The position numbers were made by a program, and so were the translations under genes. Positions 5,256 to 28,468 of a DNA stretch of 64,000 nt are shown in pieces. The notes beneath the pieces are model-generated. The model was not told where the DNA came from, made no database searches, and was given only the letters and a program-made list of their open reading frames with translations. Each line of letters begins with the position of its first letter. The first letter of the stretch is position 1. Origin of the DNA: Naegleria gruberi (Eukaryota); assembly GCA_000004985.1 (NCBI GenBank), contig GG738863.1. One strand, given 5' to 3'.

Positions 5256-6323
5256 ATGAACAACAAGATAGTTTCGGTTACTTTATTGTTCTTTCTAATA
5301 ATTGCATGTACTATAGAGTTGTCAAGCTCAGAACCAGCCCAATACACAATCAACAAATTGATTGGTCCCATTGCGGGGGATGGTAAGCCAAAAGAACAAG
5401 TTGGTTTCTACACCATTTACACCTTTACAATTGCACCTTTAAATGGTCAAATGATTGTAAACGAAAATGGAGCTGTAAAACAATTTTCACTTGATTCTGG
5501 CGCGCAAGGTTTAGTTTCTGTTATTCCTGGACTCAAAATATATTCTTCTTCTTCTTCAGTTAATGGTCAATCAACAGTGGTTTCGAATAGTGATGGAAGT
5601 GAATTGTATTACCTTGAAGAAAATTTGATAAAGAGATGGAAAAGCGGTGTGGTCAGTGTTATTGCTGGAAATGGTGTTATAGAAAATATTTACTATTTGA
5701 ACGAAACAGTTGCCACTCAAACTTTCTTAAATTCTCCAACGAGTTTAGTTTATCAAGACGATTGTTTATACATTGCTGGATATGGTATTGCCAAGTTGAA
5801 TTTAACCACTGGAATGATCAGTACTACATTTAGAATTGGTTTTATTACAGACATGTCCATTTCCACATTTGATGGATACATGTACTATTTACAAAATGAT
5901 CAATTGAAGAGATGTTCATTTTCTTCTGGTTGTTTAAATCAAGAGAATGTAATATCCAATTTGTTTATGAACACTTTTACTCTATCTTCAAATAGAAATG
6001 AATTATTCTATTTCTTTGGTAATCAAATTTACAGATTTAACATTACAACCAGAATTTCCACATCCATTTATCAAATTTCCTCATCAAATACTTATAAATT
6101 GGCTTACAGAAATGATATGATCTACTTTGCAGAAGGTTTTAAAATCAAGAAGAAATCAGTGGTGGATGGTTCACTTAGTGTTGAAGCTGGAAATGGATAT
6201 TATGGATATGTGGCTGAGAATGTGCCATCTCTACAAGCTGGTACTGCTGGTTATACTGTTTCAAGTATTGCATTGAGAAATGGAGAATTGTATTATGCTG
6301 ATATGAATATCATAAAAAGATGA
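5256..6323 (+). CDS. secreted NHL-type beta-propeller repeat protein, N-terminal part (signal peptide); probably the 5' portion of the gene that continues after the scaffold gap
   Basis: ATG 5256 followed by a hydrophobic signal peptide (VSVTLLFFLIIACTIELSSS). Repeated ...ELYY.../...IYF... blade-like motifs. A TGA stop at 6321-6323 sits directly against the 50-N gap. Confidence 0.5.
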   Translation: MNNKIVSVTLLFFLIIACTIELSSSEPAQYTINKLIGPIAGDGKPKEQVGFYTIYTFTIAPLNGQMIVNENGAVKQFSLDSGAQGLVSVIPGLKIYSSSSSVNGQSTVVSNSDGSELYYLEENLIKRWKSGVVSVIAGNGVIENIYYLNETVATQTFLNSPTSLVYQDDCLYIAGYGIAKLNLTTGMISTTFRIGFITDMSISTFDGYMYYLQNDQLKRCSFSSGCLNQENVISNLFMNTFTLSSNRNELFYFFGNQIYRFNITTRISTSIYQISSSNTYKLAYRNDMIYFAEGFKIKKKSVVDGSLSVEAGNGYYGYVAENVPSLQAGTAGYTVSSIALRNGELYYADMNIIKR

Positions 6324-6324
6324 A

Positions 6325-6374
6325 NNNNNNNNNNNNNNNNNNNNNNNNNNNNNNNNNNNNNNNNNNNNNNNNNN
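6325..6374. other. assembly gap (50 N)
   Basis: Run of N; interrupts the NHL/GPS gene. Confidence 0.99.
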
Positions 6375-8992
6375 ATATTTTCAGTGGTTCGAATGTGAAA
6401 GGAGATTCAATTGCATTACAAACTGAAATTAGTCCTGGATCAATTTCATTCTCTAAAAATGGAGAATTACATTTTGTTGATTATTCAAATATTGTTAGAA
6501 AACTTTCAGATAATGGAAATTTGTCATATGTTGGAGGAAATCCCTCTTCATTTGTTAGTAGTGATGGTACCGATGCATCAAAAGCTATCATTTCACCTTC
6601 TAAAGTTATTGAAATAGGTAATGAACTGATTATTTTAGAGTATCAAAAAATTAGAAAGGTTTCGTCTGAAGGAACAATCTCCACAATTATTGGTGGAGGT
6701 ATCTATCCATTTGTTGAAGGTGCATTGGCTACAAATACCTCCTTTACATCACTTCAGGATGTTGCAGTCAGTCCAATTGACAATTCTATTTATTTTATTG
6801 ACGCTAATTTCAATGCTATTCGAAAGTTGACTTCTACTGGAACAGTAATTACTTTATTCAGTACTTCTACGTATATTAACGCAATTGGAATAGATCAGAC
6901 TGGAATTATTTATTATAGTACTTCCAATTCGATTGGAAAATTGAATCCAGAAACTTTACAACAACAATTACTTTATTACAATACTGAAACATCCAGTTAT
7001 TTTTCAGTTTCTAATAGTGGTAATATTTATTATTTCGTAAATTGTAAAATTGTAATGATTGGAAATGGAACACTAAATGCACTTGCTGGAACAGGCACAT
7101 GCTTAACAGGATCATTATTTGATGGAATGAATGCAACACAAGATATTCCAAATGTGTATTCAGTTCATTATTCGAATCATGATAATCAATTATACTTTTC
7201 AACTGTGAATGGTATTTGGAAGATTGTTGATGGATTCATTCACAAGGTTGTCCAATCAATTCCAATGGCCAATGTAACTTCAACTGACTCTTCTAAATTT
7301 TTAAGTTTGCCAAGTTCATTGCTAGTTAAATCTAATGGAGATATTTTATTCATTGATGGAACAATTATTAGAAAGTACGATGTGCAACAAGATAGAATTG
7401 ACAATCTCTATATTGGAGATGGATCTATTGGTCCATTTTCGAATACATTTTCTTATTATTATTTCACAACATTCTGTGAAAATGAATTGGTCATTGTAAC
7501 TTCCAAAGGAATCAGACGAATTAATAGTGAAACATCAATAATGACACCTGTAACCTTTCCCTACCAATTTACGACTGTTAGGTCGTTTATTTCATGTTTG
7601 AATAATAATTTGTATTTCCTTGCTACTAATTTACAATCAATCAAGAAAGTTTCACTTTTAGATGGAAGTATTGATCATATTGCAGGTATTGCAGGTTCTT
7701 CTAGTCCATCACCTGATGGCAGTATTGCCAAATATTCAAAAATAGTTTCACTCATTAATTCAAGAGCGTTCGTTCTTCCAAACCAGGAAGTATTATATTT
7801 TGAAGGTCTAAAATTGAGAAAGATTGGTTTGGATGGAAAATGGCAAACCATTGCAGGAAATGGAAATTCTGGAACAACCCCAGATTTTTCTGAAAATGCA
7901 AAGAATGTACCTTTGACTATAGCTTTTTCATATGCTTATTCAGAGTTGAGTGGAACAATTTATTTAAGTTCAAATGGAATTTATTCACTGACACCTTATT
8001 GTAGAGATGGATACCAATTTGAAAACTCATTCAAAACATCATGTATTCCAATACCAGTTATTACTTGTTTTGGTAAGCTGGCCAATGATTCAAGTGTTTG
8101 TTCATCACGTGGTACTTGTACTGGAATGGATAACTGTCAATGCTCAAATTTGTACATTTCCTCTGATTGTTCTGTTTCATTGTGTCAAACTGAAAATGGA
8201 AAGCAAAATACAATTCTTTGTCCACCTGCACCAATTCCTTCACAAACTGGAACTACAAATCAACAAGTCGCATTGAACGTGACAGAGAGCAGAACTGAAA
8301 TTGTGAAAGACTTGACAAGTATTGACTCTAAGAATATCACATTTACATCTTCAAGTTCAGTTCAAATCACATTACCTTCAACCATTTCATCTTATGTTTC
8401 GAATCAAATTTCAACTAATGAAACAATTCAAATCATTTCAGCTATTTCAGAAAAGACTCAAATCAAACCTCAATCAAGTAACACCAATACTGGAAGTGAT
8501 GATGAAAAGTCAACAATTTCAACAGTTGAAGTTGTAAGCAAAGTTGTGAGTTTACTTTTATTGAAACAAGATGGTGAAAAGATTCAAGTGACAAATCTCA
8601 TCAATCCAATCACATTCACATTTTCCAATTTGATAATTCAATCATTTGAAAAATCAAATTTGACCTGCTCATACCTTGATGAAACATCAAAGGAATGGAA
8701 ATCTGATGGATTGAATACTTTCTTTATTGACATTCAATCTATTGGAAATGAGAAACAATTATCTATTAATTGTCAAACAAATCACTTGACTTCATTTGCA
8801 GTTATTGACATGAATTTAAAGAAAGGAAGTGTAAAAACAGACACTCTTCCTACAACACAAGATAACACTGTCGTGATTGCAGCAGTTGTTTCATCCGTTG
8901 TTGGTGTACTCATCTTGGTGGGTGTCATTTCCATTATTATTATTGCTTCTGTCTGTTTAATTAGGAGAAGAAAGCTCAATAGTAAGGAATAA
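6375..8992 (+). CDS. NHL-repeat / Cys-rich EGF-like / GPS-motif single-pass membrane protein (continuation after gap; 5' end lies in gap)
   Basis: The frame is open from the gap. More propeller-type repeats (YFID, YYAD-like) are followed by a Cys-rich module (CSSRGTCTGMDNCQCSNLYISSDCSVSLC). A GPS-type motif (CSYLDETSKEWKSDGLNTFFID...INCQTNHLTSFAVI) lies just before a single TM helix (VVIAAVVSSVVGVLILVGVISIIIIASV) and a basic stop-transfer (RRRK). Confidence 0.6.
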
Positions 8993-11589: not shown

Positions 11590-12488
11590 TAAAATTAAAC
11601 TATCAGAAACTATTGCGTAATCAAACATTTGAGAGATCACATGAATAAATAACTCATACTGTTCATCAACTAGACAAGCAAGACTCAGATGAAATTCCAA
11701 GTAGTCCATCTTCATTCCCTGGAACCAAGAACTCATTTTGAACAAGTTTACGTCACCAAATTGATGGGCATCAAAACAATTTACATGTAGATGTGTGGCA
11801 TGTGTTCATGTGGTGGCATGTTGATTGATTCCACACCGTACCTTAATACATGCGATGTGAAATACACATGAGTGAGGGATTTTACATCTATCGTTTGAAC
11901 ACAACATGTTGCTTTTTACTAATGAATGTCTGCAGATGTTGTGTTGTTGATTGTTGAAGTCGACACATGTGTGTTAAGCTACAGTATACAGTAGTGTTGT
12001 AAATTGGTTTTTTTGATTAATGCTTAAACATCCCAAGCTAGCACAACAACTCCAAACTCATCAACAAATGAAAACGTTGCGTCAATGTTGTGTGGTTATT
12101 AAGAATCTACAGTCCACTGAACCAGTGTGAGAGCTGTTGATTTTCAACAATGTTCAAATTTGGATGATGCAAAAGTTACAACTTGTTACCTTTGGTTTGA
12201 AGAGAACACAACAAGTCAAAACATTCAAAATAATACATGGTTCCAAACTATCCAAATAAGAACAATAATGGAAGTTTATCAAAATAGTGCAGAATCTGCA
12301 CCGTAACAAAATTTCAAAACCCAACATATGAGTGTAGGCATATCCTTATTATGCTATGTGGAAATGTGTTCTTGAGATGTGTGTGGTTGTTCAACTAGCA
12401 GGTGAGGAACAGCTTTGCCGCCAAATTTCCAAATTTACAAACAGCCATTTTTGGAAAATTAAATCTTGATCAAAAATTTAAAAAAAAA

Positions 12489-13811
12489 ATGCAACAAACA
12501 AATGGAAGGGAAAATCTACTTAAATTTCTCAAATTGAAAACTCCCATTAAAAAGCCACTACACAAATTGCTCACCCATATTTCTGGTTATTTTCATGATG
12601 AATATATTGATGGTGAATGTTTGAGTGAGGAAGATAATGATGATCCGAATCGATGTAACGATTGTCCAACAATTAAAGACATTGTTCCGATATTTAGATC
12701 ATTGCCATTACCTGTTCAAGTTCATATGTTTACTAATTTTGTTGTTAATTTATTGTGTTTAGATGAAGCATCAGTGACTGGAAGAGAATTTGTCGACAGA
12801 CGTGATTTGAATAATAATAATAATGTTAGACTCGATTATGAAGATATGTTCAGTGGATTGCCAGAAGAGAAAGTTAAGGAAAAGGAGATTTTGAGTTGTT
12901 TTATTGTCTACTTGTTTTTTAAAAGATATGCCATGACGAGGTTAGGTTTGGAATTAGAATTTTTCTTTGATTCGGAAAATGTCATGTCTTGGAATGATAG
13001 AGAAATGTTTTCTGAGGTGTTTAAAGAATTGAATCTTGATTATAAGGAATTGAGAAAAGTTTCCAAAGAAGAGTTGAATTTGAACCAATTAAAAAAGTCG
13101 AAAGATGGAGACATGTGGTATAAATTAGTATTAATGATCCACGAGGAATTCTTTGAGGATTTGTCAGATGAGGCCAAACAATTCAGAGAAAAGATTTCAA
13201 ATATTGTTTTTAATGAAATGGATAGAGCTAAATCTAATTGTGAAGAGTATACTTTATTGCAAAATTGGCATACTGATATTGTTTCTAATTATGCAAAGAT
13301 TTATAGAAAGAATCAACCACATAAGGATTTATTGAAACTTGGAATTGTTTGTCAAACTTCATCTCTTCACAATTCTGCAAGCCAAGATAAACATGTCAAT
13401 TACTTTTGGGATAATATCAAGAATGTGGATAATTTAGGAAATGTTCAAATGGGTTTATTCTCTCCCTCACCAAGAGCATACTTTACATTCTGTTGTTATG
13501 GAGCTAAGATGAAGCAACATAATTATGACTTTGGCGATCCAAAACAGAAATTGAGAGGATTCTTTGCCATGTGTGACTATCATAGAAAACATTCACTCTT
13601 TATCAACAGCTTTTGTGTGGGTCCATACGTTGTCGAGTTCAAAAGATTTCCTATTCTATCTCATTTCAACCACGAAAAGTGTAAGATGTGCAATACAAAG
13701 GGAAAACTCTGTCAGGCCTGTAAATCTGTAAGGTATTGTAGTTTGGCATGCCAGAAATCTGACTGGAACTCTCACAAGCAAAATTGTAAAATATATCAAT
13801 TATTTTTGTAA
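12489..13811 (+). CDS. MYND-type zinc-finger protein
   Basis: The track start 12402 is GTG; the first ATG is 12489 in an AAAAAAAAAATG context. The C-terminus CKMCNTKGKLCQACKSVRYCSLACQKSDWNSHKQNC matches MYND C4-C2HC spacing. Confidence 0.6.
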   Translation: MQQTNGRENLLKFLKLKTPIKKPLHKLLTHISGYFHDEYIDGECLSEEDNDDPNRCNDCPTIKDIVPIFRSLPLPVQVHMFTNFVVNLLCLDEASVTGREFVDRRDLNNNNNVRLDYEDMFSGLPEEKVKEKEILSCFIVYLFFKRYAMTRLGLELEFFFDSENVMSWNDREMFSEVFKELNLDYKELRKVSKEELNLNQLKKSKDGDMWYKLVLMIHEEFFEDLSDEAKQFREKISNIVFNEMDRAKSNCEEYTLLQNWHTDIVSNYAKIYRKNQPHKDLLKLGIVCQTSSLHNSASQDKHVNYFWDNIKNVDNLGNVQMGLFSPSPRAYFTFCCYGAKMKQHNYDFGDPKQKLRGFFAMCDYHRKHSLFINSFCVGPYVVEFKRFPILSHFNHEKCKMCNTKGKLCQACKSVRYCSLACQKSDWNSHKQNCKIYQLFL

Positions 13812-13934: not shown

Positions 13935-14006
13935 GGGACCATGGTCTAGTGGTATGATTCTCGCTTTGGGTGCGAGAGGCCGTGGGTTCGATTCCCACTG
14001 GTCCCC
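13935..14006 (+). tRNA. tRNA-Pro (anticodon UGG)
   Basis: Cloverleaf by hand. The 7-bp acceptor GGGACCA/TGGTCCC pairs, with a D-loop AGTGGTA. The anticodon stem CTCGC/GCGAG carries the loop TTTGGGT, giving anticodon TGG. The T-arm is GTGGG-TTCGATT-CCCAC. Closely resembles canonical eukaryotic tRNA-Pro. Confidence 0.9.
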
Positions 14007-14049: not shown

Positions 14050-15424
14050 TTATTTCCACTCTACTGGGATAGCCTTTGTTTTAAACTCCCTTTCGAACGG
14101 AACCACATTTCCTTCAGCATTCTTTGCATTATTATCATTATAAATTGCAAACACAACCTGTTCGAAATGTCCATCAAATTCCTGAATTACTTGATTGAAG
14201 AGAGCCGCCATGTGTTGAGGAGGATTTTTGTAAGCTCCACATCCCAAAGAGGATAAAACAAGTGTTGTTACATTGTGTTCGATAGCCATTGCAAATATGA
14301 GACGAAGTTTCTTCTTGACATTTTCTACAAGTGAGGAGTGGAATCTGTTTGCATTCTTTGGATCCAAATCAGGATTTGAGTAAGCAGCCACACAAACAAC
14401 ATCTGTTTTGTAGATTTTATCCAAGAATGGATATCCTTTGAGTTCACTTCCTCTAATCACGGTGACATTTGGCACATAAACACCTCCAAATTCATCGAGT
14501 GGGTATTTTCCAGTTCGTTTCTTATCCCATTTCTCAATATCTTCGAGGGAGAAGGCTAGACTTGTTCTACGGAAAAGATTTTCTTCTTGGGCTCCAGCTC
14601 CTATATCAGTCAAAATCAATTTGGTCAACCAAGCAATAAATTGATTAGATTTCAAATTGACTGAAAAACTCACCTGTTTTGTAGCCTCCACCTGGTCTTT
14701 TTGCACTTGCCATATTTAATACAGCAACCTTCCTCACAATATTTTCCTCAATTTTTGCATTCTTTTGCAACAACAATGCAGCTTCCAAACAATCTCCTTC
14801 CATCACCAATACTTGAGTGTTTTTAAATAATTTTGGTGTTTTCAAAGTCTCCAAAATTGATTGGGCAGCACTATGATTTGAATAAAACTTGGTATTCACA
14901 CAACTCTCCATCAAATCATCTCTATTAATTGAAATAATGTTATCCTCCAATAATTCCTCTCCGACTGCTTGTGTACTGATTACTTCTCTATCAGGTTTAA
15001 AATACAAATTTCTAAATGCATGGAATGTTCCTTCTTGAACCACTTGTCTCATCATCTTTAAATTTTCCTTTCCAGATTTCTGATAATTTTCAAACCACTT
15101 CTTCCACTGTTTTCCACTAAATTCATACTTATCCATATACGAATATAAACTAGCCATATTCATGTTTTGATAATACTTGTCCGGAATTGAATATTTCATC
15201 ATTGAATTATCAGATAATTCCTCAGAAGCAGCACCAGCAGCAGTAGAACTATTCACGTTAGTAGAATAAAATTGTTTCGATTGTTTCGAATTTGAATTTT
15301 TAAATCCTCCCGATCGATTATTATTATTCTTTGAATGATTATTATTCAACATTTTCAAAATGGTATGATTTGTGGTGTTGAGATTTTTTTTAAAATTAAA
15401 TTTAGCAAACGATGAACTTTTCAT
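14050..15424 (-). CDS. bacterial-type poly(ADP-ribose) glycohydrolase-like macrodomain protein (DUF2263/TIGR02452 family), 2 exons
   Basis: complement(join(14050..14600,14674..15424)). The 73-nt intron (GTGAGT...TATAG) removes the in-frame stop between the two track ORFs. Spliced product contains ...LNMASAKRPGGGYKTG-AGAQEENLFRR... and LVLSSLGCGAYKNPP, the signature motifs of the microbial PARG/macro family. ATG confirmed at 15424. Confidence 0.75.
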
Positions 15425-15528: not shown

Positions 15529-16914
15529 ATGAGCAAATTCATTGGCACTCTCAGCCATGATGTTTTCTATTATCAAATCCTTCCCTATCTACCCTATTTT
15601 TACTTGTCCATATTTCGGAGGGTGAGCAAAAGTTTTCGTAAATTTGTCGAAGGCTATCAAAAGTATTTGTTATTTAAGAGGTTTTTAACTCCCTCGGATA
15701 AGAAGAAACAAAAGACTTATTCGTATTGGAAAATGATGGAAACATCATCAACGCATCCAATTTGCAAAATGAATGATTTGAAATTGGTTGAGAAGATTGA
15801 TTTTGATAGATTTAATCTGATTAGGACACAGAATAATTATTCCCTGATGGCGAACATGATGAAGAGATTGTATTATTATAAGGAATTGAAATGGTTCTTG
15901 TACTATTTGGATAATTATGAAAATACGAAAGTGGAATGGACAGATAGATTGTTTATTAATGGATGTGATTTTGATCAATTGATAAATCATGGAGAAGATA
16001 ATATTTATGAAATGAATGATTATGAAATGGTGGAAGGAGATTATAATATTAGTTTATCATTGGTTGGTGTTACCATTGATGATGAAAATTATTTTAAATA
16101 TTTGCAGAATGAATTTGGAAATATTAGAATTAGTAATTTTGAATTGGTATTTGCACATACTGAGGAGTTTTCCTTTTGGATTAGGGAAGCAATTTACTAT
16201 ACTGATTGCTCTGAAATTAGCAATAAGATTTCATCATTCAAGACATCAAAAGTGGAAGCTTTAGGATATGTGAAAAGGTGTGCTCGTGCCTGTGGAGTGG
16301 TTCCATCACTTGTGCCAAGAGGAGATTTATTTTTCAAATTAATTTACAGGAATAATTCACTTGATTGGAAATTATGCAAGTGGATGTATAGGAATTCTGT
16401 CATTCCAATATTTGAAGTACTGAACTTTATGTATCGTTCTGATATCATGTGCTATTGTTTCGATCAGATTATTTCATTGGCAAAGTTTTACTATTTGGAA
16501 GAAAAGACATTTAATACTTTTCAATCTCAATATGCGACATTTAGAAAGCAACCCAAAGTGGTGGAATGTGTAGATCGGCTCATTGAACTCTTCTCCATTG
16601 TTGTAGAAAAGGGAAAGGAAGAAGAATTGTTCAATTCAACACAACCACCTAATGTTCTTAAAATGGCTCAACTCCTCGATAAGAAAACAATCACTCGATA
16701 TAACTACCTTAGATCCTCCTCATTAATTAATGAAGATGCTAGTATGAACTTTTCCTTTTATAGTTGGGAAAATGATTTCATCTATGCTTATTTTCAAAGA
16801 AAACCAAAGAATATTGTTTCACTTCAATTACCAACTACTTTACAAAATAACTCCAAGCAACAACTAGTGGATATTAATACCTTTGATTTGGAAGAACTTG
16901 ATTCTTACAAATAG
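15529..16914 (+). CDS. hypothetical protein with weak N-terminal F-box-like motif
   Basis: ATG in AAAAAAAAATG context, 105 bp from the divergent PARG-like start (shared promoter region). 461 aa, no catalytic motif recognised. Confidence 0.45.
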   Translation: MSKFIGTLSHDVFYYQILPYLPYFYLSIFRRVSKSFRKFVEGYQKYLLFKRFLTPSDKKKQKTYSYWKMMETSSTHPICKMNDLKLVEKIDFDRFNLIRTQNNYSLMANMMKRLYYYKELKWFLYYLDNYENTKVEWTDRLFINGCDFDQLINHGEDNIYEMNDYEMVEGDYNISLSLVGVTIDDENYFKYLQNEFGNIRISNFELVFAHTEEFSFWIREAIYYTDCSEISNKISSFKTSKVEALGYVKRCARACGVVPSLVPRGDLFFKLIYRNNSLDWKLCKWMYRNSVIPIFEVLNFMYRSDIMCYCFDQIISLAKFYYLEEKTFNTFQSQYATFRKQPKVVECVDRLIELFSIVVEKGKEEELFNSTQPPNVLKMAQLLDKKTITRYNYLRSSSLINEDASMNFSFYSWENDFIYAYFQRKPKNIVSLQLPTTLQNNSKQQLVDINTFDLEELDSYK

Positions 16915-18065: not shown

Positions 18066-18866
18066 GTGGATGAGAAACCATTATTCGAAACCTCATGCTA
18101 TTTACTTGGACTTTCAGATGAGATTTGGTGTGAAATTTTGGAATATTTAAATTTTGATGAATATTTCAATATTGCTCAAGTTTCCAAAGGAATGCACTTT
18201 TATTCGAATCTCAAAGTAGTTTGGAAGAATTTTATTTGTAGATATATTTGTCCAAATGCTCAGCAAGTGCAAACTACTCACTTTCCACAATTGGAGGACA
18301 ATTATAAGGAACTTTTCATGAAATTATACAATAATTGTTGTATTGTGTGTGGAGAATATTTGAGAGGAGATATTAAACTGGATAATCCAGTCTCTTTAGC
18401 TCAATCCAAGGGAGAAATAAGATTGGCTGCTCATCCTGCTTATTATAATTTTCTGGTAGATAATTGTGTTTGCACTTCCTGTCAATCCAATTCACTTGTG
18501 GAGACAATAAGTAAGACTGAATTGAAAAGATTCTACAATGTGAGCGATACTGAATTGTCTGATATGAGATGTATGAAATCACCTAATCCATTCCACAGAT
18601 CAACCCCAATGTTCAAATATTTAATTAGTCAAGCAAAAGTAGTCCACCAAAAGAAGCAAGAGAAAGCTCTATTACTTCTTCATAGCAAATTTAAGAAATT
18701 GAAAATTTCTAAGGGAGCCTATTTTGCTTTGATACAGAGAGGTAAACGAGGTCATTTTGGAAATGATTGTTTGGTTTACTTGGCCTTAACTGGAGACAAA
18801 TCCAATTACAAACAAAAGAAATTGGAGGAATATATTAGAAATTTGATTTTGACTAATCAAGATTAA
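18066..18866 (+). CDS. F-box-like protein with Cys-rich zinc-ribbon-like region; 5' end unresolved
   Basis: F-box-like LLGLSDEIWCEILEYLNFDEYFNIAQVSKGMHF plus CCIVCGEY...CTSCQ. The track start is GTG and there is no in-frame ATG between the upstream stop (17970) and the F-box. Either an upstream exon exists (possibly joined to the zf-PARP gene) or there is an indel. Confidence 0.45.
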   Translation: MDEKPLFETSCYLLGLSDEIWCEILEYLNFDEYFNIAQVSKGMHFYSNLKVVWKNFICRYICPNAQQVQTTHFPQLEDNYKELFMKLYNNCCIVCGEYLRGDIKLDNPVSLAQSKGEIRLAAHPAYYNFLVDNCVCTSCQSNSLVETISKTELKRFYNVSDTELSDMRCMKSPNPFHRSTPMFKYLISQAKVVHQKKQEKALLLLHSKFKKLKISKGAYFALIQRGKRGHFGNDCLVYLALTGDKSNYKQKKLEEYIRNLILTNQD

Positions 18867-19065: not shown

Positions 19066-20349
19066 TTACCCATCCCAATCAGATCCTAAAGCAATATGAT
19101 CCACACCAACCATATTAGCAATATGTTTCATTGTCTTGGCAACTGATTTAAAGCCAAAACCACAAGTAGTAAATTCAAAGAAAGCAATACCCATAACACC
19201 ATTTCTCTTGGCAATTCTTCTTGCCACTTCTTCTGAAATATTTCTTGTATGGTTACAATCACTTTTAACTCCTGTATGTGAGACGATAACTGTTGTATTC
19301 CAAGGTTCAGTCAAATCCAGAACATCCTTCATGTGACTTTCAGAAGCATGAGCCATGTCAATAATCATATTCAAATCAACAACCTTCTTGATTACTTGTT
19401 TACCAAATTCTGAGAGACCATACTTTTCTGATCCATGCAATGATCCACCAACTTGATTATCTGTGAAATGGTTCAATCCAAACATTCTAACTCCCCAATC
19501 ATATAACTTTTGAACATTGTCTAAATTATATTCTAAAACTTGAGCTCCTTCAACGGACAATAATCCAGAGACTAGATTCTTATTGGTCTTTCTTCTCTCC
19601 AAGAAATTTTCAAGATTTCTTTGATTCTTAATAAAGGTAACAAGTCCATTTCCTTCATCTTCATAGGATTGGAGTAATCTACTCATAGCTCTAGCTCTAT
19701 AGAGAGGAGAAAACCAAGCATCCCTTTCATAGAGTTGAGCAAACATCAAGAATGGGAATATGTCAGTATAATTGACATTGTTTTGCATGTTCAATGTGTG
19801 TGGAATTGAATTTACTACAGCAAATGTTTGAAGAGCCATGTTGGACTTTTGCATCTTGGAAAGTGTCACATGTCCCCTAAAATATTATCATCATTCATTC
19901 AGCAACAATCGAATAGTATGTACATCACAACAATACCAGAATTAATTTTCATCAACAATTAAACTGATATAACACAACACCTACATTTCAGATTTCAAGA
20001 AACTACCTCTATGTTTCCACATTAATGTATCCGCATGCAAATCAGCAATAAATGGAATATTCTCATGTACTTGTTGTGCATTCTTATTTTCCAAAACTAA
20101 TAAATCCAAATACTTTTTATCAACTCTATTTGAAATCTTGTCAAATCCATACGGAAAGACAACAAATAGAAAAACCATCGACAAGACACTTCTCAATACA
20201 AAAGATCTGATCAGGGAGGAAACGGATTTCTTACCAATTTTAAATAAAAGGGACATCGGAAAGATTACCACACCAAAGATTACAAGGAACATCATTGATG
20301 TTATCAGTGTTCCTGCCAAACTTTCAAAAAACATTCGATCAGCAGACAT
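19066..20349 (-). CDS. membrane dipeptidase (peptidase M19 / renal dipeptidase family) with N-terminal signal-anchor, 2 exons
   Basis: complement(join(19066..19876,19985..20349)). A 108-nt intron with a GTAGGT donor and TTTTAG acceptor joins ...ADLHADTLMWKHRGSFLKSEM to GHVTLSKMQK.... Conserved M19 motifs present (DLHxDTL, HVxL, DHIALGSDWDG). An N-terminal TM segment is present. Confidence 0.75.
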
Positions 20350-20576: not shown

Positions 20577-22337
20577 CTAAATACTGAAAATATGATTGCT
20601 TGCTCTACACTTTTCAATACATGATTGATAGCGAGATTCATCCTTATTTGATTCCTTCTTGTTTGTAATATCAACATTGTTCAATTCATTGGACATTTCA
20701 TCTGTGATACAAGCAGAGAGACAGGTCATTTGCAAGTCAAACTTCCACTTGACGATTGAGTTCAGCTCTCTAACCAGCCTTGGAAATAATCTGTGTATCA
20801 TACGATATCTAGCTGCGAATGAATTCACCAACTTGATGTGCTGTAAAACTTTTTCAAAATACTTTTTTTCTTCCTCATCTTCAAATATGGATCTTATATT
20901 TCTTCCTTGTCCTATTTTTTCAATTATTCGAATTCTAATAGAATTAAATTGGTTAATTCTGTGACGGACAAAAACTGCCAAATTATGAAATGAATAAAGA
21001 GGAAGTATCAATGAAAAATTAAAGAGTAACAATTCAACCTTTTCGACCAATTCATTCAAACCATCTGCATTAAAATTTAAGAGCTTCAAAGTGGAATAAA
21101 GTCCGTAATTGTGCATCAGCTCAATAGTGGCATGCTTGATTTGTTTTTGAGGATCGGAGAGCTTCTTATTTGCAATCTTGTTATAGAGGAAATCTCTCAC
21201 TGAATATATTAGAGATAATGTAGAAGCTGCATTTTCTAAAGTAATACCATTATTAATAGATTCTGAATCATACTTGTTATCATTGACGTAATGATCATAA
21301 AATTTGGTAAATGATTTCCCAACAAACTTTGAATTTTCTAAATCATCATCCCCAATTGATATATGAGCCTCTCCTTTTGAAGCAATCATTTTGAATTTAA
21401 GTTTGTTTACATCATCCAAATATGGATCGTTTTCAAGGTCCTTGATATAGTTCAAATAATTCCAAGCCATTTCAGTTTGGCCATCGCCAATAGTAAACAT
21501 GGTAAGGAGAACCTTGGAAACCTTTGTACAAAAGTCAACTGGATGAGCCAATGAAGAGTAGTGCACTGACTCTCTAAAGGAATTAAGAGAACGCTCAGTT
21601 TGACTCATCGACTGTTCACACAAACTCTGCACAGCAGAAAGCAGTGTTCTTACAGAGTATTCTTTCTCATATAAATCAACATTCGCCACAATTTCCTCCA
21701 TCTGTTCTCTACTCAAAAAGTCAAAGTTAACATCCACAAAGTCAAAAAAGTAATTAACAATAGCATGATGAATGTTTCCTTTCACCAAGTTTCTCTCCCT
21801 TGTCAAGTATGTTTGTTGTTGTTTTGAGAGATAGGGATGGAATCCGTTAGTTGTTGCTCTCTTTGCTTCCTTGTTTGTTGTTGCTGATGGAGCAATTATT
21901 GCCAATTTCTTCTTCTTTGAATTGTTGTTGTTAGACATATTTACAGTTGTTATTATTGTAGAGGTATTTGTTGGTGATGTTGAAGAAGATGGAGACGATG
22001 ATGAAGAAGAGGAGTTATTACAGTCATTCTTCTTATTTCCTTTAACTCTTCCTCTCTTCTTTGGAGGTATGTATTGACAAGGTCGTTTTCTCATGATACA
22101 TTCAGAACACGATGGTTTGATACGATCACAAGCAAGGTGAGACTTTCTACAGCCTGAGCAAGCAATTTTAGCAAACTGACTCTCCAATTCATCCTTGCCA
22201 CTACTACTATTATCACTATTACTACTACTATTAATCACTTCAACAACAACACCTTGTTCTTCTTCTATTGGTTGGTTACCATTGTCCTCTCCGATATTTT
22301 CCAATTCTGCAATAAATTCATCAAAGATTTGATCCAT
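20577..22337 (-). CDS. Zn(II)2Cys6 (GAL4-type) zinc-cluster transcription factor
   Basis: Perfect C-x2-C-x6-C-x6-C-x2-C-x6-C motif (CSGCRKSHLACDRIKPSCSECIMRKRPC) followed by a basic stretch and S/N-rich linker. The track start 22352 is TTG; the first ATG is at 22337 (MDQIFDEF). Confidence 0.65.
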   Translation of the reverse strand: MDQIFDEFIAELENIGEDNGNQPIEEEQGVVVEVINSSSNSDNSSSGKDELESQFAKIACSGCRKSHLACDRIKPSCSECIMRKRPCQYIPPKKRGRVKGNKKNDCNNSSSSSSSPSSSTSPTNTSTIITTVNMSNNNNSKKKKLAIIAPSATTNKEAKRATTNGFHPYLSKQQQTYLTRERNLVKGNIHHAIVNYFFDFVDVNFDFLSREQMEEIVANVDLYEKEYSVRTLLSAVQSLCEQSMSQTERSLNSFRESVHYSSLAHPVDFCTKVSKVLLTMFTIGDGQTEMAWNYLNYIKDLENDPYLDDVNKLKFKMIASKGEAHISIGDDDLENSKFVGKSFTKFYDHYVNDNKYDSESINNGITLENAASTLSLIYSVRDFLYNKIANKKLSDPQKQIKHATIELMHNYGLYSTLKLLNFNADGLNELVEKVELLLFNFSLILPLYSFHNLAVFVRHRINQFNSIRIRIIEKIGQGRNIRSIFEDEEEKKYFEKVLQHIKLVNSFAARYRMIHRLFPRLVRELNSIVKWKFDLQMTCLSACITDEMSNELNNVDITNKKESNKDESRYQSCIEKCRASNHIFSI

Positions 22338-22597
22338 TCTATCTAATATCAATGACCAATCTTTTTTTACTTTTATCTCATGAATGTTGTCTCTTTACTC
22401 GCACTACATGCTTGAGGAAGGTGAAGTACAGATGTGGATTAATTTTTGCGCACGAGGAATTATTTCATCCAACAATTTTTTATTGTTTGATTTGGCGCCA
22501 CAAAAACGACCCAGCACAACGTCTTTTAGAAATTTGGATAAAAAAACAAATTATTTATTAACAAGCAAAGGAAGATGATAGGAGAGAAAGGAATTTA

Positions 22598-25500
22598 TTA
22601 ATTAATGGATAAAGGTTTGCATTGTTGGATAAATTCATAGAGTGGATAATATCTAACAATGGAATTACTAGCAGTCAAGGTATGAGCAACAACCTTAATA
22701 CAATATCCTCTATAGTACAATTCTGGATCACACAACAAGTAGAATTTGGCTTTACAATAGTCTCCGTTACCTTCCCACAAGAGAGTTTCTTCCATATTGG
22801 AGTGTTCAAATCTAAATCTCAATTGACCCAAATCATATGTCTTTTTAGCTTCACCTTCTTTGATTCCACTGTTGAAGAGAACAATTCCTTCATTGCCAGA
22901 ATCTAATTTAACTCCAACAAATGATTGCTCTCTATTAATAATATCACTACATTCATCAAAGAAGTCATTATCTCTCAAGTATGATTTGGTTTTAAATTCT
23001 TGAGGAGTAACAATTCCACTCAATTCTGGAGTCATGTAAACAATTTCCATTGATTTGGATTGATTAAGTGAGTCAGTAAAGCTGAATCTAAAAGTGCATG
23101 GATATGGTAAATCATATGGTGTCATATGAAGGGCTCTATAAGACTTTGGACAAATTCCTTGATAATCAACAGCAGCCTTGATGAGATACTCCTTGCTTGT
23201 TGATCCTGAACTGAGATTGATAGTTTTACCCCAAACATATTGACCTTGGGTTTCACTCTTTCTAACTACAAATTCAACATCTCTACCAAAGTTTGTAGAG
23301 GTAGCAGTGGCAACAGTTGCAGCTTCCCAATAGGCAGCTTCAACACCACCAAATGCTTTCCAAGTTGTTCCATCATGATCCAAATATTCAAGTTTCATGG
23401 AGGTAATTGAAATTGGTGAGTTCAATTTGTTTGTGAAACGGAGATTGATCAATTCCAAAATTATTTCTTTTCTAGAACCGACAATGGCAATAGATGTATA
23501 GGAGCTTCTTTCACTTAAGTTTTTAGAGGTAGCACAATCTGGCAAGACAATGGAGATTGAACTTGAACCAACAGCAACAGGATCGACCAAGAGAGAACGA
23601 TCATTTACGAGTTGCTTAAGTGGTCCCATTCCTTCAGTGACAGGGGTGAATTTTTCTTGAATAACTTTGGAATAATACTTCTCCAAACCTTGTAAGTCTT
23701 TGATATTGGTTGGCTTGGCATTATGAGAAGCACAGCCATGGTGAGTTTCTTCCTCTTCTGGTTCATCAGCAAGTGGTTGTAAAGCAACTCTTTCAGAAAT
23801 TTCGTGAGTTGGATTCTTCTTCTTGTGAACTTTGGCGTCACGTTCACACAAACCAACACCGCAAGTCTTACAATCCATGAGTGAATCAACATTTTCTTCT
23901 AAATCTTCTAAACAAACTTTACAATATTTAGTTTGTTCATGCAATTCAATCAACTTGTTGTGAGCTTCAATATTTTTCAACTTTTCTTGTAATTTGTACT
24001 TTTTGATATCACCATTAACTGGAAGAAGAGCTCCAGTTCTTGTTTCAGCAGGAACAAATTCACCAAATCCATAAACTCTAAAAGTACCCAATAATAAGAG
24101 ATTAGAAGTTTCGAATTTCCAGTATCTAGCCTTGAAGCCAGTTGAACTTTCATCAATTTCAAATCTATTCAAATATGGATATGGTTTGGATTCTTCAATA
24201 GTCTTATCGAAACTAATCCAAGGTTCAGTTTCTCTAATTCTGTAATACACTCTAATATCTGAGCAGAAATTGGTTTGGGTTTTTTCATTGTACAATGCAT
24301 GAGTATAATATTCAATATATTTGAAGAAGTGAATATTAGTATAACTTAAAATCAAAGTACCAAATGGTGAACAGATACCATATTCAGCAGAATCATCCAA
24401 AATACCTTTTTGATTATTTTCAGCTCTATCATAGGTATTAAATTTGGTTGCTTGTTTAGGTGTTTTGGTTTCATCATCTTCTCTTCCAATCATCATATCA
24501 TTTGGAACTAAACAATTGATTTCACTACCTCTGTATGGAGTCATGTGAATTGCTTCTTGTTGATCTCTAGAGAGGAGTAAACCCTTTGTAGTATTATATG
24601 GAACAAATGGAGCAACAGCAAAGAATTGAAGCATACCAAATGAAAAGTCACCACAAATTCTTTCAAATTTCCAGAATCTAGCAGTAATACCTTCATCACC
24701 ATTAAACTTCCAAATATTGAGTTTTGGCCAGTGGTAATACTTTTGATCAAAAGTATCAACTTTAGTCCAGGCATCACCTTCTTGAACCTTATAGTACAAA
24801 TTCAAACGGTGACGAAGCTCATCATCAAACTTGATAGTCTTTTGCTTCTTGAATTCCAAATATTTGAAAAGATGAACAGCTTCAAATTCAAGAACCATAT
24901 AGTTATGAACAGATTGACCTATAGCACATCCAGCCACTCCTGAATCATCAATAATACCTTCAATAGTGTTATTGGCTCTATTATTATTCTTTGATGAATA
25001 GAGTTTGATTGGAGCAACTACGTTAACATCTGGACATGTACTTTCAGTATAGATTGGATCAACAAGATTTGCTGGAGCAAGTTTTGGAATATCTGAGTGG
25101 TCATTTCTAATTGTTTCAATCTTGACTTCACCACTGTAGTCAGCATTACCAATCTTAAAGTTTTGAACTGGAGCCATAGCATAAAATTTGAGCATACCAA
25201 CTGCTAAAGTACCAGTCAATCCAGAGTGTGGAGTTTGTACAAAACGGAAATATCTAGCTCTATGTCCACATTCTCCAAAATCTACCATTAAAACACCTTG
25301 GACACTTGTCTTGATTTCTGTAATATGCTGCAAAGTAACCCATGGATCTCTACTTCTCATCTTGTATTCAAGTGAAACACCAACAATTGAAGAGGTTTGA
25401 GTTCTACCCCAACCATCTACTTTTTCAAATTGTTTACCATTAGGATGTTCTCTAAATGCCAAAACTCTGAAATTGTAAACACGTTCAAATGCAACTTCAA

Positions 25501-28468
25501 TAAATGATGAAGTACCATCATTTGTGGCAAAACCTGGTTTTCCATCTGATCTTAATAAATCATCAATAACTTTTGGATCAGTCTTGGTACGTCTATTAGT
25601 ACTGTGATACATAGCATGAGGTTTGATCAAGTTAATTTGATCACAACCTGGGAATGGATCCTTCAATTGTTCTTCAATTAATTCTGGTGGGAGAATTGGA
25701 CCACTCTTTGTTTCAATTGGAACAAATGGAGAATAACCAAAAGCTCTAAACATACCAATTTCAATACAACTGCTATAAGCAACCAATCTCAAATACTTGG
25801 CCTTGATTGGTTGTGGTAAAGTGATAGTATTTACGAGAGGAGTAATTTGAATTTGATTTTCTTCAATAGTAGTCAACAAGGTCCAAGTTTCAGAATCCTT
25901 CAACTTGTACTCAATTTTAGTATCTTTGAGATAATAAACTGGGTTGCTGACAGTTGTCAAAGTCATGTACTCAAAGTGGGTAAATAAGTAAACATGCTCA
26001 TATTCAAATTCAATTTCCTTATGATTAGAAGTAGTGACATAGCCAAAATCACCAGTATCATCTAATAAACCTTCCAATGTATTTTCACGTCTGGATTCTC
26101 CCTTGGAATTAAGTTTCTTGATTGGAATAAGATTAATTTCTGGACCAGTATATTTTGGTTCCCATTGAGCAAGAGCTTCCTTCACTGATAAAATAATACC
26201 ACTCTTAGTTTGAATTGGTACATAATCACAATAACCAAATAATCTAATCATACCAAAGAAGAGATAATCACGATCTTCCTTGAAGAATCTCCAATATCTT
26301 GCTTTGATTGGTGTATTGAATTGAATAGTATTGACTTGAGGATTGGTTTTGATTTCACTTCTCTTTAATTGAACAGCAAGTGTCCATGAATCTGATTCCT
26401 TAACTTTGTATTCAATTTTAACATTATCTAAACTACTTAATTGCATAGATTCTCCCAATTTACTTGTCTTAAATTCCATATAAGTGAATAAATAGACGGC
26501 ACCATATTTGATTTCAATAAATTGGTTAGAATTATTACCTGTACAAACACCCAATTTACCAGAATCATCAAATAATCCTTCTAAAGTATTATCACCCCAA
26601 CTGTCCTTTGAAGATTGCTTCATTTCAAGAGGAGGGATACAGTTGATATCACCTGAAGTAAATTTAGGTTCATCAGAAACTGTTGGTACAACAACTTGTT
26701 GAGCTACTACTGGTTGTTGAACAACTTGTGGTTGAGGAGTGGAAACAACAGGTGTTTGTGTTACTACTGGAGTAGATGTTACCGGTTGAGAAACTACTGG
26801 AGTGGTTGTTGTTTGTTGAACAACTGGAGTAGATGTAACAACAGGTTGTGAAGATCCAGGAACATAAGGTTGAACTGTACCTGACTTGGTCTTGTGAGCA
26901 ATATATGGAGCATAACCATACATTCTCAACATACCGTAGAACAAGTGGGTCCATTGCTTGAAAAATCTCCAATATTTAGCCTTGATAGGTGTTGTAAAAT
27001 TGATGGTATTGAGCTCTGGATTGAACTTGATATCTGACTTTTCAAGAGTCTTTAACTTGGTCCATTCATCACTTTCCTTAACCTTGTATTCAATTGTTGA
27101 ATCTTGAAGATAGTAGGTTTGATTTCCTTCACCCAATTTGCAAGCTTTAAACTCCAAGAATGTGAACAAGTAAACTTGATCGAAAATCAATCTAATTTCA
27201 GAGCTACCATTTGTTGTACAAGCACCAAATTTACCAGAATCATCCAATAATCCTTCAATGGTGTTATCTCCCCAACTATCTTTGCCAGACATTTTCAATT
27301 CAACTGGAGCAATGACACTAACTTCACCAGATGTATATTTTGGTTCATCTTGAGAAACAGCAACAGGAGGTGTCTGTGTAACTACTGGAGTTACAGTTTG
27401 TTGTTGAGAAACTACAGGAGTGGTTGTAGCTGGTTGAGTGACAACAGGTTCAGATACAACAGAAGATGGTGAAACATATCTAGAAACAACTCCTGAAAGT
27501 GTCTTGATTTCAGTATATGGATGATAAGCAAATAATTTCAACATTCCAAAGAATAATTGGACGAAACCATTTCCCAATTTTGTAAATCTGAAAGTTCTTG
27601 CTTTGACTGGTGTATCAAAATGGATAAATGTACTTTCTGGATTGAGCTTAATATCAGATTTACTGATTTCTCTCAATGGAATCCATTCTTGACTTTCGAA
27701 TTGTTTATATTCGATTAAAGTATCTTGTAATAAACCATATTGATTAATTTCTCCCAATCTATTTGTCTTGAATTCGAGTAATGTGAAAAGGTAAACTCTA
27801 TCAAAAGTGAGAACAATATTCTGCTTCAATCCATTTGAAGTACAAGCACCATGCTTTCCAGTTTCGTCTAATAATCCTTCAATGGTGTTATTTCCCCAAC
27901 TATCCTTAGTGGATAATACCAATTTTGATGGAGCAATTACACTGATTTCACCTTCTGTATATGGTGGTTCATCTAAATTCTCAGCAACAGTAACTTCTTG
28001 TACATTGGAAACTTGAACAATCTCACCAGTCTTTGTCTTTATATTCACAGCAGGAGCATCACTAGCTCTCAACCACAATCTACCAAAAGCCACATGATGA
28101 GTTCCAAATTTATCAAATTTGAAATAACGAGCTGCACATCCCAATTGCACTTTTTGAATGCCGTGTCCTTCTCTGAATGAATAAATTTCCTTCCACGGAT
28201 CACTTTCATTGGAACGACAATAAATATCAACACCCTTTAATCTCTGTTGATCATCGTAATACTTCTTGTTGGAGGTACATTCGAGAGTGGTAAATTGATA
28301 AACTCTATCAAATTTCAACTCTACACAAGGTTTGTTGATAAAATCTGTGGAACAACCATAATCACCAGATTCGTCCAATAAACCTTCAATGGTATTATCT
28401 GACTTTTTACATAAATTATGCACTATCAATTCTGTTGGTGCAACAATAAAACCCTCGCTACTGGACAT
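22598..28468 (-). CDS. giant (1956 aa) protein: eight tandem ~250-aa beta-sandwich (discoidin/galactose-binding-like) repeats separated by T/P/V/Q-rich linkers, then coiled coil, B-box-like zinc finger and a C-terminal domain
   Basis: Single 5.87-kb ORF, ATG confirmed. The repeat core ...SWG(N/D)NTIEGLLD(E/D)(T/S)GK.GACT.NG...VYLFT.LEFK...G...KA(R/K)YWRF... occurs 8 times. A B-box-like CKVCLEDLEENVDSLMDCKTCGVGLCERDAKVHKKKNPTH follows a predicted coiled coil. Confidence 0.7.
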   Translation of the reverse strand: MSSSEGFIVAPTELIVHNLCKKSDNTIEGLLDESGDYGCSTDFINKPCVELKFDRVYQFTTLECTSNKKYYDDQQRLKGVDIYCRSNESDPWKEIYSFREGHGIQKVQLGCAARYFKFDKFGTHHVAFGRLWLRASDAPAVNIKTKTGEIVQVSNVQEVTVAENLDEPPYTEGEISVIAPSKLVLSTKDSWGNNTIEGLLDETGKHGACTSNGLKQNIVLTFDRVYLFTLLEFKTNRLGEINQYGLLQDTLIEYKQFESQEWIPLREISKSDIKLNPESTFIHFDTPVKARTFRFTKLGNGFVQLFFGMLKLFAYHPYTEIKTLSGVVSRYVSPSSVVSEPVVTQPATTTPVVSQQQTVTPVVTQTPPVAVSQDEPKYTSGEVSVIAPVELKMSGKDSWGDNTIEGLLDDSGKFGACTTNGSSEIRLIFDQVYLFTFLEFKACKLGEGNQTYYLQDSTIEYKVKESDEWTKLKTLEKSDIKFNPELNTINFTTPIKAKYWRFFKQWTHLFYGMLRMYGYAPYIAHKTKSGTVQPYVPGSSQPVVTSTPVVQQTTTTPVVSQPVTSTPVVTQTPVVSTPQPQVVQQPVVAQQVVVPTVSDEPKFTSGDINCIPPLEMKQSSKDSWGDNTLEGLFDDSGKLGVCTGNNSNQFIEIKYGAVYLFTYMEFKTSKLGESMQLSSLDNVKIEYKVKESDSWTLAVQLKRSEIKTNPQVNTIQFNTPIKARYWRFFKEDRDYLFFGMIRLFGYCDYVPIQTKSGIILSVKEALAQWEPKYTGPEINLIPIKKLNSKGESRRENTLEGLLDDTGDFGYVTTSNHKEIEFEYEHVYLFTHFEYMTLTTVSNPVYYLKDTKIEYKLKDSETWTLLTTIEENQIQITPLVNTITLPQPIKAKYLRLVAYSSCIEIGMFRAFGYSPFVPIETKSGPILPPELIEEQLKDPFPGCDQINLIKPHAMYHSTNRRTKTDPKVIDDLLRSDGKPGFATNDGTSSFIEVAFERVYNFRVLAFREHPNGKQFEKVDGWGRTQTSSIVGVSLEYKMRSRDPWVTLQHITEIKTSVQGVLMVDFGECGHRARYFRFVQTPHSGLTGTLAVGMLKFYAMAPVQNFKIGNADYSGEVKIETIRNDHSDIPKLAPANLVDPIYTESTCPDVNVVAPIKLYSSKNNNRANNTIEGIIDDSGVAGCAIGQSVHNYMVLEFEAVHLFKYLEFKKQKTIKFDDELRHRLNLYYKVQEGDAWTKVDTFDQKYYHWPKLNIWKFNGDEGITARFWKFERICGDFSFGMLQFFAVAPFVPYNTTKGLLLSRDQQEAIHMTPYRGSEINCLVPNDMMIGREDDETKTPKQATKFNTYDRAENNQKGILDDSAEYGICSPFGTLILSYTNIHFFKYIEYYTHALYNEKTQTNFCSDIRVYYRIRETEPWISFDKTIEESKPYPYLNRFEIDESSTGFKARYWKFETSNLLLLGTFRVYGFGEFVPAETRTGALLPVNGDIKKYKLQEKLKNIEAHNKLIELHEQTKYCKVCLEDLEENVDSLMDCKTCGVGLCERDAKVHKKKNPTHEISERVALQPLADEPEEEETHHGCASHNAKPTNIKDLQGLEKYYSKVIQEKFTPVTEGMGPLKQLVNDRSLLVDPVAVGSSSISIVLPDCATSKNLSERSSYTSIAIVGSRKEIILELINLRFTNKLNSPISITSMKLEYLDHDGTTWKAFGGVEAAYWEAATVATATSTNFGRDVEFVVRKSETQGQYVWGKTINLSSGSTSKEYLIKAAVDYQGICPKSYRALHMTPYDLPYPCTFRFSFTDSLNQSKSMEIVYMTPELSGIVTPQEFKTKSYLRDNDFFDECSDIINREQSFVGVKLDSGNEGIVLFNSGIKEGEAKKTYDLGQLRFRFEHSNMEETLLWEGNGDYCKAKFYLLCDPELYYRGYCIKVVAHTLTASNSIVRYYPLYEFIQQCKPLSIN

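Follow-up and report, generated by a model that had tools for sequence, protein, structure and literature searches.

How the nuclear genome of a eukaryote comes to hold a poly(ADP-ribose) glycohydrolase (PARG) of the bacterial type, and whether such a gene is intact there, is the question raised by a locus of Naegleria gruberi that occupies positions 14,050 to 15,424 of a 64,000-nucleotide (nt) stretch of contig GG738863.1 (assembly GCA_000004985.1), to which we refer as the window. An earlier note, made from the letters of this stretch, had read the locus as a bacterial-type PARG gene that carries a spliceosomal intron and that was either anciently transferred or retained in this lineage. Our results make it very probable that the locus is an intact, intron-containing microbial-type PARG gene of the N. 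gruberi nuclear genome (NAEGRDRAFT_66573) and one of several paralogues.

A split gene on the minus strand

The gene lies on the minus strand of the window and consists of two exons and one intron, which together give a spliced open reading frame (ORF) of 1302 nt, or 433 codons plus stop. Exon 1 (15424..14674, minus strand, 751 nt, G+C 31.4%) holds codons 1–250 and the first base of codon 251, and its 3' end at 14674 reads GGC TAC AAA ACA G; it specifies both the helical N-terminal region that is common to the homologues (codons 75–230) and the opening of the macrodomain core (codons 231–250, VAVLNMASAKRPGGGYKT). The intron (14673..14601, minus strand, 73 nt, G+C 28.8%) is a phase 1 GT-AG element within the codon of Gly251, opens with GTGAGTTT and closes with GATATAG (GACTGATATAG), thus having the form GTGAGT...ATAG, and the exon junction that it leaves is CAG|G. 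Exon 2 (14600..14050, minus strand, 551 nt, G+C 38.8%) runs from the last two bases of codon 251 to codon 433, supplies the rest of the macrodomain and ends with a TAA stop codon at 14052..14050. The spliced product contains SAKRPGGGYKTG|AGAQEENLFRR (in its longer form NMASAKRPGGGYKTG|AGAQEENLFRR) and, further on, LVLSSLGCGAYKNPP, which are the two motifs that the earlier note had quoted as diagnostic of microbial PARGs.

Through the 90% cluster of the exon-1 ORF, retrieved by an exact-sequence look-up, we found the N. gruberi RefSeq protein XP_002678161.1 (EFC45417.1; UniProt D2VCH5; NAEGRDRAFT_66573, 'predicted protein', 409 residues), to which residues 25–433 of the spliced product are identical. 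The window is therefore from N. gruberi, and the public gene model already has this junction: the RefSeq model of XP_002678161.1 is spliced at the same position, in agreement with the coordinates and the 73-nt GTGAGT...AG intron that had been proposed from the sequence.

The product as a microbial-type PARG

Profile searches with PF10021 and TIGR02452, named in the earlier note as a check on the assignment, bore it out. In a Pfam scan of the spliced protein, PF10021 (PARG_cat_microb / DUF2263) was matched with an E-value of 2.6e-27 and 96.5 bits against a cutoff of 23.5, and the NCBIfam model TIGR02452 gave 115.6 bits against a cutoff of 50 (E-value 2.7e-33, model positions 32–259 of 266). The same Pfam scan placed the generic Macro family PF01661 below its gathering threshold (13.5 bits against 22, E-value 0.071) and returned no match to the canonical PARG family PF05028 at E ≤ 0.1, PF10021 and the sub-threshold Macro match being all that it reported. 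Sequence matches in the PDB, obtained with phmmer, were bacterial PARGs only (Deinococcus radiodurans, 5zdb, E-value 2.4e-15; Thermomonospora curvata, 3sig, E-value 4.7e-13).

According to Rack et al. 2020 (PMC7050489), PARG-like hydrolases are marked by a GGG-X(6-8)-QEE signature and by a diphosphate-binding loop in which the sequence G[A,V][F,Y] forms a hydrophobic patch; the catalytic signature is also given by Perina et al. 2014 (PMC4245714). The N. gruberi signature, GGG-YKTGAGA-QEE (GGG-X7-QEE), spans residues 245–257 (14581..14692, minus strand) and is the part of the gene that the intron splits, with E257 as the second and catalytic glutamate of QEE. Across 46 aligned sequences there is no variation at G246, G247, G251, A254, Q255, E256 and E257, and almost none at G245. 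The diphosphate-binding loop, GCGAYKNPP, occupies residues 370–378 (14218..14244, minus strand), its hydrophobic patch being G372-A373-Y374, and aligns with GCGVFRNDP of D. radiodurans PARG; in the same 46 sequences G370, G372 and P377 are invariant and C371, A373, N376 and P378 are conserved in at least 90%.

In order to place the fold we used an AlphaFold2 model of the RefSeq protein, which covers residues 25–433 and is identical there to the spliced product (mean predicted local distance difference test score, pLDDT, 84.4; predicted template modelling score 0.84). When this model was compared with the PDB using Foldseek, ranks 1–13 were taken by T. curvata (3sih/3sig/3sij) and D. radiodurans (5zd*) PARG structures, with E-values from 5.5e-18 to 7e-13 and target TM scores of 0.77–0.82; T. 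curvata PARG was the best fold match (E-value 5.5e-18, target TM 0.82) and D. radiodurans PARG the next. Other macrodomains followed from an E-value of 3.7e-7, with MacroD2 and macroH2A appearing only at E ≥ 2.5e-6 and a query TM of about 0.3; the top 50 matches included no structure of a canonical PARG. Two other assignments were tried and rejected. Canonical eukaryotic PARG (PF05028) was ruled out, since neither its profile nor its accessory domain was found and no such fold stood in the top 50; a MacroD/Af1521-type macrodomain (PF01661) was ruled out through its sub-threshold profile score and the much weaker fold matches. Thus, sequence and model identify the predicted product as a microbial-type PARG with a single macrodomain fold, every feature of microbial-type membership that we examined being present, and the claim that it is of the bacterial type rather than a canonical PARG or a generic macrodomain holds.

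A spliceosomal intron within the catalytic signature

The 73-nt element is best read as a U2-type spliceosomal GT-AG intron that must be lost for the two exons to be joined, for which the evidence is indirect but consistent. Read without splicing, the frame of exon 1 runs into a stop after 9 codons of intron sequence, and the frame of exon 2 is a different one, a length of 73 nt not being divisible by 3. Removal of the intron restores a single frame right through the 13 most conserved residues of the family: the alignment with D. radiodurans PARG crosses the exon junction without a gap, as does the alignment of 45 homologues, and such an ungapped alignment together with invariant residues on both sides of the junction is not producible by chance. 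No in-frame AG lies between the donor and the acceptor at 14601, and splicing at the next one, 14598, would leave the protein with a shorter spacer than the X7 found in every one of the 46 aligned sequences. The donor form of the PARG intron, GTRAGTTT, recurs in two further candidate introns, the only others in the window to pass a strict two-ORF test; these GT-AG candidates, at 33611 and 43791 on the plus strand (donor GTAAGTTT), join long ORFs. No introner-like repetition of the PARG intron was found within the window. As a side observation, an 8-nt perfect inverted repeat (TCAATTTG/CAAATTGA) could form a hairpin in the intron RNA (-15.6 kcal/mol) that would bring the splice sites together, a marginal signal given that 9 of 200 shuffled sequences fold as well (z = -2.2).

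A comparison between strains bears on whether the gene is functional and whether it belongs to the genome at all. A 2.2-kb metagenome contig from a second strain is 98.8% identical to the window and reproduces the junction of the gene with its upstream neighbour. The two strains differ at 5 of 104 intergenic positions, 2 of 73 intron positions and 1 of 529 positions over codons 75–250 (one synonymous and no non-synonymous difference); intron and intergenic positions together (7/177) thus differ more often than the coding positions (1/529; Fisher p = 3.6e-4). Set against 2/73 in the intron, a single synonymous change in codons 75–250 therefore argues for purifying selection on the spliced product. 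A pseudogene, or a gene left unspliced in which the 73 nt are kept and a truncated product of 259 residues without the QEE catalytic residues is made, is accordingly a highly improbable reading of the locus, although a prokaryotic gene caller did annotate exactly this 259-residue ORF on the metagenome contig: apart from the selection just described, the splice sites are canonical and exon 2 is open over 183 codons with all invariant family residues intact. Bacterial contamination or mis-assembly, for which the sole point in favour is that the family is named bacterial, is so improbable as to be negligible. The gene can be read only by way of a spliceosomal intron, Naegleria genes and a tRNA-Pro gene flank it within 100–250 nt, the independent contig of the other strain carries the same junction with the upstream neighbour, and the G+C content of the gene (31–39%) matches that of the window (33.5%). 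The earlier note had likewise dismissed contamination, and its conclusion is upheld by the N. gruberi origin of the window, the eukaryotic neighbours (zf-MYND, F-box and Zn2Cys6 proteins) and the matching G+C; the A-rich start context to which it had also appealed does not discriminate in a genome of 33% G+C and belongs to a start codon that is itself uncertain (see below).

Intron positions in Naegleria and beyond

The best named homologue is a protein of Naegleria lovaniensis with 59% identity. Its gene (positions 6001–7210 of the N. lovaniensis locus) has no intron at codon 251, being uninterrupted through GGGYKTGSGAQEE, and instead carries two introns with GTAAGT donors, one of 60 nt (6629–6688) in the codon equivalent to that of G289 and one of 88 nt (6933–7020) in the codon equivalent to that of C371, so that the intron sets of the two Naegleria genes show zero overlap. 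The nearest relatives outside Naegleria, the metagenomic sequences P0003 and P0004, are uninterrupted ORFs, P0003 adjoining a Ser/Thr kinase gene on a eukaryote-like contig of 6.8 kb. Because N. lovaniensis lacks the intron and P0003 and P0004 are intronless, the intron is, judged by gene comparison, most parsimoniously an acquisition of the N. gruberi lineage, inserted at a CAG|G proto-splice site. Weighing against this reading is the lack of synteny between the two Naegleria loci: the N. lovaniensis gene has RRN3, a Na/sulphate symporter, a WD40 protein and V-ATPase A as neighbours, the N. gruberi gene a zf-MYND protein, tRNA-Pro and an ORF without known match. The two genes, whose orthology is assumed here, could thus be paralogues (seven are reported for N. 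gruberi), which weakens the inference of intron gain.

In order to extend the comparison we mapped introns to the N. gruberi numbering in four further eukaryotic genes, namely two of Balamuthia (a and b) and one each of Nematostella and Anaeramoeba; the Pelomyxa gene, which could not be fitted under GT/GC-AG rules, was left out. The codon-251 intron is absent from all four of these genes, as it is from N. lovaniensis. A phase 1 intron is nevertheless present inside the 13-codon signature in four distant eukaryotic lineages, with no position common to any two of them: at codon 245 (first G of GGG) in Nematostella, at codon 247 (third G of GGG) in Anaeramoeba, at codon 251 (G) in N. gruberi and at codon 257 (second E of QEE) in both Balamuthia paralogues. 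Simulation of uniform placement gave P ~0.0025 for such clustering, in a test that was chosen post hoc. All of the junctions concerned are AG|G or AG|A, and the simplest reading is one of parallel insertion at proto-splice sites in a glycine-rich motif that is conserved at the nucleotide level. As a weaker possibility, these introns could all go back, by sliding, to a single ancestral intron of eukaryotes, in which case the gene would be ancient in eukaryotes.

Relatives and origin of the gene

Beyond N. lovaniensis the nearest named relatives are those of Heterolobosea sp. BB2, Balamuthia, Pelomyxa and many Amoebozoa, followed by Pandoraviruses and then by the cnidarians Nematostella and Exaiptasia; further close relatives come from transcriptomes of Copromyxa, Stenamoeba, Ceratiomyxa, Flabellula, Cavostelium and Pyxidicula, and from Ancoracysta. 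Some homologues are fusions, PF10021 being joined to PF08719 (NADAR) in three of them (P0011, P0014 and P0023, including the amoebozoans Copromyxa and Ceratiomyxa) and to PF03747 (ARH-type ADP-ribosylglycohydrolase) in two others (P0089 and P0109); both types are two-module ADP-ribose erasers. Proteins of this kind, termed bactPARGs, occur in five of the six eukaryotic supergroups, all except Plantae, in copy numbers from one to up to seven, with seven reported in the excavate N. gruberi, three of which have the full signature (Perina et al. 2014, PMC4245714, section 3.2). The gene of XP_002678161.1 carries the full PARG signature. Neither an N. fowleri protein nor any of the other reported N. 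gruberi paralogues was present among the best 120 homologue matches; for this reason the remaining N. gruberi copies must have diverged much further, and N. fowleri may lack the gene or have it unannotated.

The phylogeny that the earlier note had proposed as a check was built as a single midpoint-rooted neighbour-joining tree (500 bootstrap replicates, no distant outgroup). The Naegleria pair was recovered in 499 of the 500 replicates, its grouping with P0003 in 453 and the four-member clade that also includes P0004 in 470 (94%). All named eukaryotes except Anaeramoeba fall on one side of the tree, together with the Pandoraviruses, and the other side holds a large cluster of metagenomic sequences with the single named bacterial sequence, from a Bacteroidaceae metagenome-assembled genome; a variant of the signature, PGGGY versus PGGGV, tracks this split. 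The deep nodes stand against too firm a reading of that picture: the split between eukaryotes and bacteria was found in 0 of 500 replicates for the exact set and in 87 of 500 for an extended set. The tree thus delivers the grouping of named eukaryotes, Anaeramoeba apart, and leaves its deep nodes without support. A monophyletic eukaryotic clade, having no support from the bootstrap, was not adopted, and we therefore make no claim on the direction or age of a transfer.

A recent and direct acquisition from bacteria by the Naegleria lineage, with introns gained later, has several observations on its side: the family is predominantly bacterial, Bacteroidaceae-type proteins are 37–43% identical over 57–75% of the query and so resemble many of the eukaryotic matches in this respect, the intron positions of the two Naegleria genes differ and their closest relatives are intronless, as expected of young introns, and the split between eukaryotes and bacteria is without bootstrap support. 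We nonetheless consider it improbable, given that the best matches after Naegleria are eukaryotic or lie on a eukaryote-like contig (Heterolobosea sp. BB2, Balamuthia and P0003), that the tree separates the named eukaryotes other than Anaeramoeba from the named bacterial sequence and the metagenomic cluster around it, that the PGGGY/PGGGV variant follows the same division, and that bactPARGs are spread so widely over the supergroups. Because the gene is placed in a clade of mostly eukaryotic sequences, it appears to be a long-resident eukaryotic gene and is unlikely to be a recent bacterial import or a contaminant. With regard to the choice between ancient transfer and lineage-specific retention that had been offered for this locus, the closest named relatives are eukaryotic, but the tree, with deep nodes of this kind, does not separate ancient transfer, spread from eukaryote to eukaryote and vertical retention.

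The start of translation

Three in-frame methionine codons on the minus strand are candidates for the start: Met1 at 15424, with which the ORF of the earlier note begins, Met25 at 15352, used by the RefSeq model, and Met75/76 at 15202 (MMKYSIPDKYY), where conservation with the homologues begins. The homologues, including that of N. lovaniensis (MISKFPTPDKFY...), begin at N. gruberi Met75/76, and in the N. lovaniensis gene an in-frame stop precedes the ATG by 27 codons, so that this gene is without the N-terminal extension. The 74-residue extension is absent from all homologues. Its residues 25–73 have a pLDDT below 50 in the AlphaFold2 model and are predicted to be disordered, and it is basic, with 11 Lys or Arg but neither Asp nor Glu in the first 67 positions. 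Between the two strains, codons 1–74 (15203–15424, minus strand) differ at 4 of 222 positions, three of the differences being non-synonymous, as against 1 of 529 downstream (p = 0.029). Since the extension is unconserved, predicted to be disordered and fast-evolving, the start codon is uncertain and may be Met1, Met25 or Met75; by inference only, the basic extension would be a species-specific disordered targeting tail, or else it is not translated.

Predicted mechanism and substrate

The catalytic and diphosphate loops are intact in the spliced product, and a mechanism can be carried over by analogy from the family, for which it was taken from Slade 2011 as summarised in Rack 2020 (PMC7050489). 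The enzyme would bind the terminal ADP-ribose of a poly(ADP-ribose) (PAR) chain, the diphosphate loop with its GAY patch would strain the distal ribose, and E257 would protonate the 2'-OH leaving group of the alpha(1''-2') ribose-ribose O-glycosidic bond, after which water would resolve the oxocarbenium intermediate. ADP-ribose units would in this way be released from the chain ends by an exo-glycohydrolase, reversing the products of the PARPs that are present in N. gruberi (PMC4245714).

With regard to what the enzyme acts on in the cell, we lean towards PAR as the main physiological substrate. A consideration that tempers this view is that we know of no enzymology for any closely related eukaryotic member, and the substrate (PAR versus ADP-ribosylated nucleic acids) and the exo or endo mode are for that reason inferred by analogy. 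For bacterial members, removal of ADP-ribose from the 2'-OH of RNA or from the phosphate ends of nucleic acids, which protects against bacterial ADP-ribosyltransferase (ART) toxins, has been demonstrated (PMC11833690). The main job of the N. gruberi enzyme could likewise be the removal of ADP-ribose from nucleic acids (RNA 2'-OH and 5'- or 3'-phosphate ends), by which a bacterivorous amoeba would be protected against the ART toxins of its prey or endosymbionts; the up to seven N. gruberi copies, an expansion typical of conflict genes, and the fusion of some homologues to NADAR or ARH, which are other ADP-ribose-removing modules, speak for such a role. It is rather unlikely all the same, as N. 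gruberi has PARPs and the window shows no toxin, immunity or defence context, and the linkage in the case of RhsP2 is chemically the same as the ribose-ribose bond of PAR, so that PAR is still possible as the physiological substrate. Still more doubtful is a wider analogy with the bacterial members, by which the expanded N. gruberi set as a whole would serve in immunity instead of in the housekeeping erasure of PAR, by stripping off the ADP-ribose that ART toxins of ingested or intracellular bacteria attach to RNA or DNA. Were this so, the set would parallel in a eukaryote the protection against RhsP2 that a bacterial PARG was shown in 2025 to confer, and bacterial ADP-ribosylation warfare would be linked to protist grazing.

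Genomic setting

Judged by their sequences, the neighbours of the PARG gene are typical eukaryotic content and none is related to ADP-ribosylation. Downstream of the gene, a tRNA-Pro(UGG) gene (13935–14006, plus strand) is convergent with the PARG gene and separated from its stop codon by only 43 nt, such that any PARG 3' untranslated region of more than 43 nt would be antisense to it, and is preceded in the window by an ORF for a zf-MYND protein (12402–13811, plus strand). Upstream, an ORF of 461 residues without a Pfam match (15529–16914, plus strand) is divergent from the PARG gene, the two ATGs being only 104 nt apart; in the second strain this ORF has an in-frame 3-nt insertion near 16730. 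Further ORFs specify an F-box protein (18066–18866, plus strand), a fragment of a membrane dipeptidase (M19; 19069–19869, minus strand), a fungal-type Zn2Cys6 cluster protein (20580–22352, minus strand) and a protein of 1956 residues (22598–28468, minus strand). A tblastn search found no tandem PARG paralogue in the window, and a scan for bacterial promoters and terminators gave no enrichment, as expected at a eukaryotic locus.

Comparison with known PARG systems

The finding is already known: the gene model, which RefSeq contains, became public with the N. gruberi genome, and the family was catalogued in this species in 2014. The reading of this locus is thus a correct re-discovery and illustrates that a split microbial-type PARG can be recognised from raw sequence. 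XP_002678161.1 is the same gene, with the differences that RefSeq starts at Met25, 24 codons downstream of the ORF start at 15424, and that the public record gives no functional name. What is added here is such a name for the 'predicted protein', doubt about its annotated N-terminus, evidence for a turnover of introns between two Naegleria species, with a lineage-specific intron that interrupts the catalytic signature in a family for which horizontal transfer is often cited, the clustering of introns within the catalytic motif and a list of the nearest relatives.

Canonical eukaryotic PARG (PF05028; human and Tetrahymena) is a distant macrodomain relative that shares both the GGG-X(6-8)-QEE signature and the mechanism proposed for it (PMC7050489), and differs in having a helical accessory domain, whereas the N. 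gruberi protein has no PF05028 match at E ≤ 0.1. T. curvata PARG (3SIG/3SIH) and D. radiodurans DRB0099 (5ZDA-5ZDG) share with the N. gruberi protein the Pfam and TIGRFAM family, the catalytic and diphosphate loops, the single macrodomain fold (target TM 0.82) and the predicted chemistry, but their identity to it in the structural alignment is only 21–25%. The two bacterial enzymes themselves differ around the proximal ribose, which in T. curvata PARG is shielded by a 'ribose cap' that makes the enzyme a strict exo-hydrolase, whereas D. radiodurans PARG is open there. The N. gruberi protein further differs from these two solved bacterial enzymes in an extra conserved helical region of about 155 residues (75–230), which is aligned in Bacteroidaceae-type and eukaryotic homologues and lies outside the short phmmer matches to both enzymes, and in the 74-residue extension with its predicted disorder over residues 25–73. 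From the eukaryotic bactPARGs described by Perina et al. (2014) in filamentous fungi, Monosiga, Bigelowiella and N. gruberi itself there is no categorical difference: the gene belongs to the same class, that of a single-domain microbial-type PARG encoded in a nuclear genome.

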